From Candidatus Pacearchaeota archaeon (GTDB lineage Archaea > Nanobdellota > Nanobdellia > Pacearchaeales > GW2011-AR1), in NCBI GenBank assembly GCA_026395855.1, contig JAPLXX010000046.1, positions 1 through 36,192 on the forward strand: a stretch of DNA of 36,192 bases. Direction: 5' to 3'. Under the pieces are notes generated by a model that had not been told where the DNA came from, ran no database searches, and saw nothing but the letters and a program-made list of their open reading frames with translations. Of this stretch, positions 4,374 through 32,407 are shown one piece after another. Positions within the stretch are counted from its first letter, which is position 1. Each line of letters opens with the position of its first letter. Both the position numbers and the translations under genes were made by a program.

Positions 4374-4411
4374 GCTCTTTGTTATTCTGCTCTTTTTATA
4401 AATATATTGAA

Positions 4412-4485
4412 AGCCTGTGCTGAGAATTGAACTCAGGACCTCAACATTACCAATGTTGCGCTCTAACCGGCTGAGCTACACAGGC
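4412..4485 (-). tRNA. tRNA-Thr (anticodon GGU), no intron, no encoded CCA
   Basis: The reverse complement folds by hand as a cloverleaf: acceptor GCCTGTG/CACAGGC, D stem GCTC/GAGC, anticodon stem CAACA/TGTTG with loop TTGGTAA, T arm CTGAG-TTCAATT-CTCAG. An AT-rich TATA-like tract lies just upstream and there is no conserved leader element. Confidence 0.9.
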
Positions 4486-4641
4486 TTATAGCTAATGTTA
4501 TTATTATAGTATAAAAATTTAAGGTTTTTTAATGCCTGGTTTTAATAGTGAGATAAATAAAGATGGATGATATAATTTTAGTTTAAAGCTGGTTCAATAA
4601 AATAATACTAAAAATAACATAGTCCTTTGATTAAAAGATAA

Positions 4642-5905: not shown

Positions 5906-6058
5906 ATAGTATTATGGAAAATTGTAAATATAAACCTAACGAGTTATGTTTAAAGACGAGGATAATTAATAAGAAGGATGCGTTTATTTAATATTTATTA
6001 GGGGGTTTTTAGCAACTAACAAATATTTAAAAGAGGATATTATAATATAAATGTAAAA

Positions 6059-6105
6059 GCCCTGATTCAACCAAGCATGGACGAAGCTGCGGCGAGTGAA
6101 TGAAA
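6059..6105 (+). repeat. leader-repeat copy A (26-nt core at 6071..6096), immediately 5' of tRNA-Gln
   Basis: Matches copy B (7411..7448) at 35 of 38 positions, and the core CCAAGCATGGACGAAGCTGCGGCGAG is identical. It begins about 25-30 nt downstream of the TATA-like tract atatttaaaa, so it is probably the transcribed 5' leader. Confidence 0.75.
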
Positions 6106-6112
6106 TGAGCAA

Positions 6113-6185
6113 AGCCCCATAGTACAGCGGTCAAGTATATCGGCCTCTGAAGCCGGTGACCCAGGTTCGAATCCTGGTGGGGCTA
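6113..6185 (+). tRNA. tRNA-Gln (anticodon CUG)
   Basis: Hand-folded cloverleaf: acceptor AGCCCCA/TGGGGCT (the A1-U72 pair is typical of archaeal tRNA-Gln), D stem GTAC/GTAT, anticodon stem TCGGC/GCCGG with loop CTCTGAA, T arm CCAGG-TTCGAAT-CCTGG. Confidence 0.9.
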
Positions 6186-6205
6186 TATTACTATAAAAAA
6201 TGAAA

Positions 6206-6239
6206 GCAAATCAGAGATTTTCATTCATTCGCTATCAGG
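6206..6239 (-). repeat. leader-repeat partial copy G (inverted, lacks the core), 3' of tRNA-Gln
   Basis: The reverse complement reads CCTGAT-AGCGAATGAATGAAAAT-CTCTGATTTGC. This matches the two flanks of copy A (CCTGAT ... GCGAGTGAATGAAAT) with the 25-nt core missing. Confidence 0.55.
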
Positions 6240-6249
6240 AAAATATCAA

Positions 6250-6813
6250 ATGAAAAGATTTTTCAGATTCAGATACCCAAAACTGGCATTGATTTGCATT
6301 TCAATAGTTGTATCTTTTTTTCTTTTCGGCAACGCACAGGTTCAAAGCATAATTTCTGGCTTAAACAGCCTGACATATCTTGGAATTTTCATTGCAGGAC
6401 TGCTTTTTTCATTCGGGTTTTCAACACCTCTTGCAATAGGCTTTTTCCTTACAGCATCACCTGAAAATATTTTTCTTGCAACATTTATTGGAGGCGTTGG
6501 CGCGATGCTCTCAGACTTGCTTATTTTTCATTTCATAAAATTTTCAGTAATGGATGAATTCAACCGCCTTGAAAAAACAAAACCAATGAAAATGATGATA
6601 GATGAAATCGATAAAGATATCAAAAAGAAGATTCGAAATTATCTCGCTTTTTTCCTTGCCGGAATAATCATTGCCTCACCTTTGCCTGATGAATTGGGAG
6701 TGGGAATGCTTGCAGGATTAACAGCAATAAAGCCAAAAATTCTTGCATTAATAAGTTTCATAATGAATAGCGTTGGAATTTTCTTAATGCTTTGGCTTGG
6801 AAATGCTTTTTAA
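6250..6813 (+). CDS. polytopic membrane protein, unknown function
   Basis: 187-aa ORF with about 5 hydrophobic helices. Confidence 0.5.
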   Translation: MKRFFRFRYPKLALICISIVVSFFLFGNAQVQSIISGLNSLTYLGIFIAGLLFSFGFSTPLAIGFFLTASPENIFLATFIGGVGAMLSDLLIFHFIKFSVMDEFNRLEKTKPMKMMIDEIDKDIKKKIRNYLAFFLAGIIIASPLPDELGVGMLAGLTAIKPKILALISFIMNSVGIFLMLWLGNAF

Positions 6814-6820
6814 TTTAGAA

Positions 6821-6979
6821 TTATAATTTTATCCTGAAGTCTTCAGCTGTCTTGGGATTTTTTTCATGCTGATCCATTTTGCCTTTAAGCAGACAGTCAT
6901 AGCAGATATGAATTGTTCCGTCTTTGTCTTTGATTCTTCCTGTTCCCCTACACTTCTTGCATTCCATTTCGCTTACCAT
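6821..6979 (-). CDS. small zinc-ribbon protein (CxxC ... CxxC), not in the ORF track
   Basis: Hand translation of the reverse strand gives MVSEMECKKCRGTGRIKDKDGTIHICYDCLLKGKMDQHEKNPKTAEDFRIKL (52 aa). It contains a CKKCRGTG (DnaJ-like CxxCxGxG) motif plus CYDC, and fills an otherwise empty 260-nt gap. Confidence 0.5.
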   Translation of the reverse strand: MVSEMECKKCRGTGRIKDKDGTIHICYDCLLKGKMDQHEKNPKTAEDFRIKL

Positions 6980-7075
6980 GTATTTCAGAATAAAGAGCTA
7001 TATTTAAGCATTGTTAAGATGCGAAATAATCGAAATAATCACTAGATTTAAATATATGCCAGTGTTGTATAAAAT

Positions 7076-7330
7076 ATGGCAGATGAAAAAGAAATCGGAA
7101 AGGTTTCAAGCTATTTTAGCCATGTGGAAGTCGCTGCTATAAAGCTTTCAGGAATTCTGAAAGTCGGTGACACAGTTCATATAAAAGGACACACAACGGA
7201 TTTTGAAGTAAAGGTGAACAGCATACAGATAGAAAGAGCAGAAGTAAAAACTGCGAAAAAAGGCGACCACATTGGCATAAAAGTCCCTGATAAAGTCAGG
7301 CCCAGCGATGTTGTTTTCCTTGTTAAATAA
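7076..7330 (+). CDS. small beta-barrel protein resembling EF-Tu domain 2
   Basis: 84-aa ORF. The pattern GDTVHIKG...VNSIQIERAEVKTAKKGDHIGIKV resembles the translation-factor domain II barrel. Confidence 0.5.
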   Translation: MADEKEIGKVSSYFSHVEVAAIKLSGILKVGDTVHIKGHTTDFEVKVNSIQIERAEVKTAKKGDHIGIKVPDKVRPSDVVFLVK

Positions 7331-7410
7331 AAGGATTACTAAAAAACCTTAAATAGACTTCTCAGCTTTATTTTTTAAGCAGAGCGCAGCGTTTAAACAA
7401 AGTGAAGTTT

Positions 7411-7517
7411 GCCCAGATTCTGCCAAGCATGGACGAAGCTGCGGCGAGAACGCGAAGCGTTTGAGCCTTAAGCCGACCACGCATAGGCGGCTTTGGGTGA
7501 GCGAGCAAAGCGAGTGA
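7411..7517 (+). ncRNA. leader-repeat copy B (core 7423..7448) plus a GC-rich structured extension, 5' of tRNA-Glu
   Basis: The core is identical to copy A. The downstream 7449..7517 segment is conspicuously GC-rich in an AT-rich genome. It contains hairpins AACGC-GAA-GCGTT (7449..7461) and AAGCCG-N12-CGGCTT (7470..7493), then a purine-rich tail up to the tRNA. Confidence 0.6.
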
Positions 7518-7714
7518 GCCCCCGTAGTTCAGAGGCCAAGAATGCAGCCCTCTCAAATGGCAATGCAGTTGACATTTGTTTTCCAAATGTCATTTTTCGT
7601 TGCCAGGAAATGCTTGAAGTTTAGCTCGATGAGAGAAAAACTTCTGTTCTCTTAGAACAAAGCAATTTCCAATAGGGAACGGCTGTGACCCGAGTTCGAA
7701 TCTCGGCGGGGGCG
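7518..7714 (+). tRNA. tRNA-Glu (anticodon CUC) with a roughly 124-nt intron at position 37/38
   Basis: Exon 1 is 7518..7555 (GCCCCCG TA GTTC AGAGGCCAA GAAT G CAGCC CTCTCA). Exon 2 is 7680..7714 (C GGCTG TGAC CCGAG TTCGAAT CTCGG CGGGGGC G). All four stems pair. C32-U35 can pair with intronic AGGG (7674..7677), leaving a 3-nt bulge AAC at the 3' splice site, which is BHB-like. Confidence 0.85.
7556..7679 (+). other. tRNA-Glu intron, highly structured
   Basis: Perfect helices found by hand: TGACATTTG/CAAATGTCA (7570..7578 with 7584..7592), TGGCAA/TTGCCA (7558..7563 with 7600..7605), GGAAAT/ATTTCC (7606..7611 with 7665..7670), GAAGTTT/AAACTTC (7616..7622 with 7638..7644), TGTTCT/AGAACA (7645..7650 with 7654..7659). 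Confidence 0.7.
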
Positions 7715-32163: not shown

Positions 32164-32219
32164 GATTAATTTGATTAGGAAAGGTTTTTTAAAACAAGTA
32201 ATTTAATCTAAGTAAGTAA

Positions 32220-32333
32220 GGCTCTGATTTGACCACGCTTGGACGAAGCAGTGACAAATTTCAGAGAAATTTGGCTCCGTAGCTCTTTCCTAAGTTACGT
32301 CTGGAAACGAGTGAGGAGACTGAACGAAGTGAA
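32220..32333 (+). ncRNA. leader-repeat copy C plus an extended leader of tRNA-Lys (contains a 13-nt duplicate of the tRNA 5' end)
   Basis: 32222..32258 matches copy A at 27 of 37 positions ungapped. CTCTGATTTG (32222..32231) pairs with CAAAT-tt-CAGAG (32255..32266) around the core. It begins about 25-30 nt after the TATA-like tract ttttttaaaa. Confidence 0.6.
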
Positions 32334-32407
32334 GGCTCCGTAGCTCAGCTTGGTAGAGCACTGGACTCTTAATCCAGGTGTCGTGGGTTCAAATCCCATC
32401 GGGGCCA
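32334..32407 (+). tRNA. tRNA-Lys (anticodon CUU)
   Basis: Hand-folded cloverleaf: acceptor GGCTCCG/CGGGGCC, D stem GCTC/GAGC, anticodon stem CTGGA/TCCAG with loop CTCTTAA, T arm GTGGG-TTCAAAT-CCCAT, discriminator A. Confidence 0.9.

Follow-up and report, generated by a model that had tools for sequence, protein, structure and literature searches.

Two tRNA genes of an uncultured archaeon carry the same GC-rich sequence in their 5′ leaders, and the locus raises the question of whether this sequence is a dedicated part of the tRNA precursors or has arrived there from elsewhere. The stretch analyzed, hereafter the window, is a 36,192-nt contig (JAPLXX010000046.1) of a Candidatus Pacearchaeota metagenome-assembled genome with 35% GC. 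The 26-mer CCAAGCATGGACGAAGCTGCGGCGAG occurs in it exactly twice, at 6071–6096 upstream of tRNA-Gln(CUG) (copy A) and at 7423–7448 upstream of tRNA-Glu(CUC) (copy B), where zero occurrences are expected (100 shuffles). The repeat finder ranked this family first in the window and extended the match to 35/38 positions (92%; 6059–6096 versus 7411–7448), with a third copy, C, upstream of tRNA-Lys(CUU) at 28/38 (74%; 32221–32258), which bears out the homology described in an earlier, sequence-only reading of this DNA. We are inclined, with somewhat better than even confidence, to regard the repeat as one copy type of a miniature insertion element, GC-rich and imperfectly palindromic, that moves from lineage to lineage by recombination and is transcribed in tRNA leaders as a passenger, rather than as a dedicated signal for tRNA processing. 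The element consists of a 28-nt core and a variable tail, and is found in Pacearchaeota and Woesearchaeota (the Nanoarchaeota of GTDB). It is dispersed at gene boundaries, polymorphic for presence and absence, flanked by allele-like duplications and built around a covarying palindrome, and some of its copies are in-frame within genes.

A covarying palindrome dispersed at gene boundaries

The conserved unit is a 28-nt imperfect palindrome, CTG-A-TTTG-A-CCA-NGCN-TGG-A-CGAA-G-CAG, with 11 of 14 symmetric positions matching around a 4-bp centre. In the corresponding nested hairpin, 84% of alignment cells pair over 18 distinct copies and variants; five pairs have changed on both sides (e.g., G-C to A-U, or U-A to C-G or G-U), and the covariation score was reached by none of 500 shuffles. 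When the partners were slid by one to three columns as a control, only 23–43% of cells paired. The different hairpin that the sequence-only reading had drawn, a GCA..TGC stem with the loop TGGACGAAGC, paired in only 61% of cells, no better than shuffles. The core is itself one imperfect palindrome, with no separate terminal repeats around an internal segment, and its antisense strand, read by hand, is free of stop codons in all three reading frames.

No known Rfam family matches the core. At the gathering score, only tRNAs were found in the window and 14 related loci. A first permissive search of the three leaders returned nothing overlapping the core, and in a second, YrlA (15.6 bits, E = 1.3) and KCNQ1OT1_1 (6.5 bits, E = 1) touched copy C, both far below their gathering scores and at chance level. 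A hammerhead-like core (CUGANGA...GAAA) was rejected, since equivalents of G8 and A9 are absent and Rfam gave no match, as was a K-turn or C/D-like motif, since the bases beside the CCA stem are not conserved as G-A. Literature searches likewise found no described DPANN element or leader of this kind.

To map the distribution, GATTNNNCCANGCNTGGACGAAGC was scanned against one genome per species and a metagenome collection, a true copy being one with a C-Y-C-TGATT head in a low-GC contig. True copies came only from Nanoarchaeota, Woesearchaeota and Pacearchaeota, the other matches being those expected by chance, in unrelated bacteria. In viral contigs, a looser scan matched 88 stretches, all of them in contigs of higher GC content (0.42–0.73) and none with the TGATT head; a viral or plasmid origin was rejected, the viral-contig matches all being chance.

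The 5′ flanks of tRNA genes (Gln, Glu, Lys, and Arg-UCU) account for five of the 11 distinct sites and are strongly over-represented, but not exclusive. Outside the window they comprise tRNA-Glu in L010, tRNA-Arg(UCU) in L011 and tRNA-Lys in L140, with a divergent tRNA-Lys version in L138. The suggestion that carriers share a CUN anticodon fails, because of the tRNA-Arg(UCU) copy. The remaining sites belong to protein genes. In six contigs, the core lies antisense immediately downstream of the gyrB stop codon, and it is likewise antisense after the stop codons of the enolase gene, gatE and an unnamed gene in L022; in L016 it is antisense and in-frame inside gatA, as a 45-nt insert encoding 15 aa; and at ftsZ it is found ~70 nt upstream. 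The element lands directly after a C-Y-C triplet. Thus, of the conserved tRNA leader module that had been proposed, the enrichment at tRNA genes, the existence of a covarying hairpin (another one) and the lack of an Rfam match have stood up, while specificity for tRNAs has not. The family is a dispersed repeat, as the sequence-only reading had foreseen for the case that it was mistaken, but one that is enriched at tRNAs and does covary.

A variant family, CTCTAAYTCGGCCACGCTTGGACGAG, behaves like the main one. Two of its copies stand in tandem after an rpoK-like gene (L007 4851–4900, minus strand), together with a duplicated acidic tail, and another is in-frame within an FKBP gene (L009 6735–6770), translated as TRPSVAELEE. 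Nested or decayed copies were seen in L129 and in L010 (279–302). In L129, a 30-nt GC-rich hairpin (CGCGAG..CTCGCG; ~2900–2965) is located at the centre of the gyrB-associated core.

Duplicated gene ends and empty sites

Every copy of the element stands between two versions of the same gene end: the intact gene lies on the GAAGC side, and a second terminus of that gene, ending in C-Y-C, lies on the TGATT side. At tRNA genes, the duplicates are short (4–8 nt) and identical: AAAGCCC for tRNA-Gln, AAGGCTC for tRNA-Lys, and GTGAGCCC in L010. A second orphan at tRNA-Lys measures 13 nt in the window and 24–25 nt in L140, and the duplications at protein genes span 21–57 nt. In the latter, the last 7–19 codons, including the stop codon, are doubled, and the two copies differ almost only synonymously: by 4–6 nt and 0–2 residues at gyrB, 9 nt and 0 residues at enolase, 6 nt and 0 residues in L022, and 19 nt and 4 residues at gatE. 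In a simulation of random mutation run on five of the pairs, each gave p ≤ 0.002 for so few amino acid changes. A decayed target-site duplication is ruled out by the almost entirely synonymous nature of these differences; judged by their sequences, the two gene-end copies look like alleles from different lineages. The inserts between them are ~45–110 nt long (62 nt at gyrB and 65 nt at enolase) and contain no open reading frame (ORF). Frequently, the flanking gene end recurs in inverted form in the post-core tail, which gives a direct–inverted–direct layout. A duplicated gene end at every copy is a mark of insertion and speaks against a dedicated tRNA leader module.

The polarity of the insertion can be read at gyrB. 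The alleles in L130–L134 (82–89% protein identity to L021) are empty, and the ATG of the next gene follows their stop codon by 0–6 nt, whereas the L129 allele is filled. In filled alleles, the next ATG follows the distal stop codon at native spacing (TAAATG), and taking out the 62-nt insert brings back a layout resembling the empty alleles. This identifies the distal copy as the native end and the proximal one as having arrived with the element. Between filled alleles, the element and adjoining bases are ~100% identical, compared to 77–81% for the gene body. The idea of a co-conversion tract at gyrB is weakened by the empty allele in L132, which has most of the conserved last 45 nt. Several Pacearchaeota GyrB proteins (P0124, P0138, P0141, P0142, P0163, and others) are ~1058 residues long and contain an intein domain, PF14890.

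Duplicated ends make either copy usable, and this is the starting point of a rival explanation in which the core plus the proximal copy would form an archaeal bulge-helix-bulge intron removed by the splicing endonuclease, the upstream orphan being the real first tRNA exon or the distal copy the real C-terminus. The orphan does begin at the expected transcription start, and introns are a common and variable feature of the tRNA genes of these genomes. However, the tRNAs downstream of the element are complete by themselves (66–71 bits), the flanks are direct repeats rather than complementary sequences, and no two 3-nt bulges around a 4-bp helix were present at the junctions in the folds inspected. 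At gyrB and enolase, the inserts run antisense relative to the orientation at tRNA genes. We consider splicing of the element very improbable. A model with a leaderless ancestor and an intron was rejected on the same grounds, the downstream tRNAs being complete and no bulge-helix-bulge being drawable.

Empty sites are also found at the tRNA genes. L122 and L123, which have 95% identity to the window in a neighbouring 84-residue protein and 84–93% identity at the DNA level, contain tRNA-Gln and tRNA-Glu at the same places without the core. L128 and L124 lack it at both genes as well, and the region upstream of tRNA-Glu in L124 is plain AT-rich DNA. The element is thus not kept at the orthologous tRNA-Gln and tRNA-Glu genes, as a conserved leader module would be. 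For the orthologous tRNA-Lys, the core is kept in L140 and present as a variant in L138.

The tRNA-Gln locus of these relatives has a further peculiarity. Directly upstream of tRNA-Gln, an ORF of the LAGLIDADG_3 homing-endonuclease family is present in L122 (1167–2072) and L123 (~1160–2075); the L122 ORF (301 aa) ends inside the first bases of tRNA-Gln, and a degenerate D-arm-like, orphan-like fragment lies upstream of it. Compared to the window, the 5′ half of the L122 tRNA-Gln differs (replaced), while the 3′ half is identical. Remnants of the ORF are seen in L128 (~1340–1625) and L124 (~1120–1175). An ARAGORN prediction of tRNA-Pyl(cta) in L124–L127 (L124 1176–1301) is a mis-call of an intron-containing tRNA-Gln(CUG).

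The presence of such an ORF, or its remnants, at the equivalent tRNA-Gln 5′ site bears on another alternative, namely that the core is a protein site at the level of DNA: a 28-bp pseudo-palindrome recognized by a dimeric nuclease or recombinase, such as a homing endonuclease, with breaks at or near the site driving replacement of the gene end. The dyad symmetry, with its conserved asymmetric positions, is retained whatever the context and in either orientation relative to genes, and is in line with such a site, as is the placement of the second small hairpin of L129 exactly at the core centre. On the other hand, no nuclease gene was seen beside any core copy in the loci inspected, no core was found split by an endonuclease gene, and 301 aa is the size expected of a two-domain enzyme with an asymmetric site. 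As a separate explanation, we regard a DNA-level protein site as distinctly unlikely; it overlaps with the insertion-element reading rather than replacing it.

Leaders of the tRNA genes in the window

The anatomy of the three leaders conforms to the layout described above. The tRNA-Gln(CUG) gene occupies 6113–6185 (plus strand, as for all features of the three leaders). A putative TATA-like box for its transcript, TATTTAAAAG, is at 6024–6033, its centre ~29 nt upstream of A6058 in the orphan. The left direct repeat, AAAGCCC (6056–6062), is an orphan of tRNA-Gln positions −2 to +5 and is identical to the right repeat at 6111–6117, which overlaps the tRNA start. The core palindrome of copy A, CTGATTCAACCAAGCATGGACGAAGCTG, follows at 6062–6089 (hidden Markov model E = 8e-09), and a post-core tail at 6088–6112 ends with GAGCAAA.

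At tRNA-Glu(CUC), a B recognition element (BRE)/TATA-like motif, AAACCTTAAAT, is found at 7344–7354. The orphan GCCC (7411–7414) is a copy of the first bases of the tRNA, a layout also seen in L010, and is followed by the core of copy B, CAGATTCTGCCAAGCATGGACGAAGCTG, at 7414–7441. The rest of the leader (7442–7517) is composed of GC-rich hairpin modules. Two divergent versions of a pre-tRNA module are present, GCGGCGAGAACGCGAAGCGTTTGA followed by GCC and GGTGAGCGAGCAAAGCGAGTGA followed by GCCCCC, one resembling L123 and the other L128; on this comparison, they read as the same two-allele pattern as that of the duplicated gene ends. The gene itself (7518–7714; 42.7 bits) was detected only with the intron option or in a permissive Rfam search, and was missed by default ARAGORN. 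Its 124-nt intron sits after position 37/38; the same intron is present in L122/L123, an 86-nt one in L124, and none in L128.

The leaders of tRNA-Gln and tRNA-Glu have a further segment in common, TGCGGCGAG, which is at 6088–6096 in copy A, and is shared by copy B and by the core-less tRNA-Glu leaders of relatives. Because TGCGGCGAG belongs to tRNA-Glu leaders even where the core is lacking, the tRNA-Glu leader, at a distance of 1.35 kb, was probably the template for copy A, and such copying would account for the perfect 26-nt identity of the two.

The tRNA-Lys(CUU) gene (32334–32407) has no intron in the window; a 41-nt intron is present in its counterparts in two related contigs (L138 1946–2060 and L140 1917–2033). 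Its putative TATA-like box, TTTTTTAAAA, is at 32185–32194, in a region 90–98% conserved in L138 and L140. The left direct repeat, AAGGCTC (32218–32224), is an orphan of tRNA-Lys positions −2 to +5, identical to 32332–32338, and leads into the core of copy C, CTGATTTGACCACGCTTGGACGAAGCAG, at 32224–32251 (E = 3e-11). Next comes an inverted repeat, CAAATTTCAGAG (32255–32266), complementary to CTCTGATTTG at the left junction and identical in L140. The second tRNA-Lys 5′-end orphan, GGCTCCGTAGCTC, is an exact 13-nt copy at 32273–32285, and a second, unrelated leader module of 48 nt that ends with GAAGTGAA fills 32286–32333; this module is common to L138, and L140 has another sequence in its place. 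The second orphan and module suggest that this gene end has received two insertions independently.

In copies A and C, the centre of the TATA-like box is 29–30 nt before the first base of the tRNA 5′-end orphan; in L011 the spacing is 28 nt. In all three cases, the core is directly 3′ of the short orphan. The TATA-like tracts noted earlier are thus confirmed, 28–30 nt upstream of the first base of the repeat in copies A and C, and with the element between such a box and the tRNA, it is reasonable to take it as the first bases of the pre-tRNA, the start being predicted from the position of the box. The GC content of the three leaders is 47–60%, compared to 35% for the contig. The fourth tRNA gene of the window, tRNA-Thr(GGU) (4411–4486, minus strand), has no such leader, as had been noted: its upstream region is AT-rich, and a BRE/TATA-like AAACCTTAAAT is ~34 nt before the tRNA, so the leader must be short. 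AAACCTTAAAT occurs at 4517–4527 (minus strand) and 7344–7354, i.e., upstream of tRNA-Thr and tRNA-Glu, and also precedes tRNA-Glu in L123 and L128; tRNA promoters of this lineage probably have it as their BRE/TATA. The other genes of the window, including PheRS, RFC, PolB, FEN1 and CDC48, mark it as ordinary core genome.

Conservation at tRNA-Lys is where the insertion-element reading meets its most serious competitor, a functional 5′-leader RNA hairpin, which broadens the proposal of the sequence-only reading. The hairpin, at the very 5′ end of pre-tRNAs and of some other transcripts, would be selected for RNA stability, processing or protein binding, and its spread elsewhere would be secondary. 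The tRNA-Lys cassette (orphan, core, inverted repeat and second orphan) is identical at 65/66 positions between the window and L140, while the gene beside it shows 74% identity overall and 59% at neutral third codon positions. In L138, a divergent version with compensatory changes in the stem has taken the place of the core cassette alone, next to a promoter of 98% identity. The tRNA-Lys conservation fits recent horizontal spread or cassette exchange and selection on the sequence equally well, and the core swap in L138 next to so conserved a promoter argues against a functional leader. The placement at the predicted first transcribed bases in copies A, C and L011, the enrichment at tRNA 5′ flanks, and a covarying stem whose U-G and G-U pairs can form only on the tRNA strand, as RNA, all agree with a selected hairpin. 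It is nevertheless absent from the same tRNA-Gln and tRNA-Glu genes in relatives and from tRNA-Thr in the window, roughly one site in two lies inside an ORF or antisense to a protein gene, and the duplicated gene ends are left unexplained. We consider a selected leader hairpin rather unlikely, although the conservation at tRNA-Lys and the G-U pairs, which are specific to one strand, leave appreciable weight on a leader or protein-binding role.

Origin of the element and its relation to known systems

If the two gene-end copies are alleles of different lineages, as they appear to be, a genome would have acquired the element, together with a replacement gene end, by recombining with DNA from a different lineage. 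The join would be homologous on the gene side and would rely on microhomology at the C-Y-C junction, and it would orphan the native end. The element may have passed from the tRNA-Glu leader to that of tRNA-Gln by short ectopic conversion, the 5′ ends of the two tRNAs being similar. At the three tRNA genes of the window, insertion would have taken place within the first 5 nt of genes whose earlier leaders were only 1–4 nt long, so that the old promoter would now transcribe the orphan, hairpin, tail and tRNA. RNase P would remove the resulting 54–114-nt leader, the element having no necessary role in this removal. In a published survey, HARP was not found in DPANN, and RNase P ribonucleoprotein proteins were found in all archaeal genomes examined (PMC6380272).

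Several observations weigh against the insertion-element reading. No transposase, nuclease or recombinase could be linked to the element, nor was an autonomous parent found; in the window, no gene is flanked by inverted cores, and the 30 largest ORFs scanned gave no match to integrase or transposase families. The copy number is low, at three in the 36-kb contig and one to two exact-pattern copies per genome in the five representative genomes that carry it. The duplications, at ~4–5 to 57 nt, are unlike a transposase-defined target duplication. The near-identity of the tRNA-Lys cassette beside a much more diverged gene may mean purifying selection rather than recent transfer, and the G-U pairs, to which L138 adds one by substitution, agree with a hairpin formed by RNA of the tRNA strand. 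The transcription start sites, moreover, are predicted from promoter-like boxes.

A more specific and clearly less probable version, which we put forward tentatively, is that of a miniature homing module in DPANN, in which the hairpin moves together with a recoded target terminus, invades essential genes harmlessly, and orphans the native end. It might be driven by a nuclease such as the LAGLIDADG enzyme encoded at the equivalent tRNA-Gln site of relatives, and the hairpin might act in a 5′ cap-like manner on pre-tRNAs. Such a module would possibly, though we would not count on it, be of a previously undescribed kind. If the recoded gene-end mechanism is true, the element would be unusually small among mobile elements that mend the damage caused by their own insertion.

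In these uncultured archaea with very small genomes, tRNA leaders and gene termini appear to be places where small insertions and allele replacements recur, which bears on DNA exchange among DPANN genomes. There are also practical consequences. Orthologous sites should be checked before a conserved motif in front of tRNAs is taken for a processing signal, and gene callers will end proteins at the element-borne copy and overlook the orphan fragments.

Several known systems share features with the element. MITEs (miniature inverted-repeat transposable elements) and the repetitive extragenic palindromes and mosaic elements of bacteria (REP/BIME) are, like it, short, non-coding, imperfect palindromes found after stop codons, and most copies here are indeed imperfect palindromes of 20–40 nt outside genes, with few inside ORFs. 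Unlike these, the element has no fixed-length target duplication, no GTAG head and a low copy number, and neither a RAYT transposase nor a parent transposon was seen in the window and the loci examined. Classification as a MITE was rejected on account of the variable, non-identical duplications, the lack of a parent transposon and the small number of copies. Transposed tRNA introns of Thermoproteales likewise place the same short sequence in different archaeal tRNA genes; however, those introns have bulge-helix-bulge structures and lie inside the tRNA, whereas the element is upstream of complete tRNAs and is also present at protein genes.

Rickettsia palindromic elements are bacterial, ~100–150 bp long, and not reported to duplicate a gene end. 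As in that family, small palindromes are found here in intergenic DNA and in RNA-gene flanks, and insertions into ORFs are in-frame and translated (gatA in L016 and FKBP in L009). The differences are the 28-nt core, the archaeal host, and the gene-end duplication. The GC clusters of yeast mitochondrial DNA, which are 30–40 nt long and create duplications of 2–3 nt (AG/TAG), resemble the element as GC-rich hairpins in an AT-rich genome that are polymorphic, nested, and located at gene ends or inside ORFs. They differ from it in that the duplications described here are of ~4–57 nt and represent different alleles, and in that the host is an archaeon.

With respect to the gene ends, the closest parallels are prophage e14 in icd of E. 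coli and the mobile element of Allomyces atp6, which are kilobases long and encode an integrase or endonuclease. In these systems, as here, an intact gene with a foreign, synonymous terminus is followed by the element and then by the orphaned native terminus, and a gene terminus duplicated with synonymous differences flanks the insert. Here, by contrast, the space between the copies holds no integrase or endonuclease gene and no cargo. The most unusual feature of the element is that a synonymously recoded duplicate of a gene end is attached to an insert of only ~45–110 nt.

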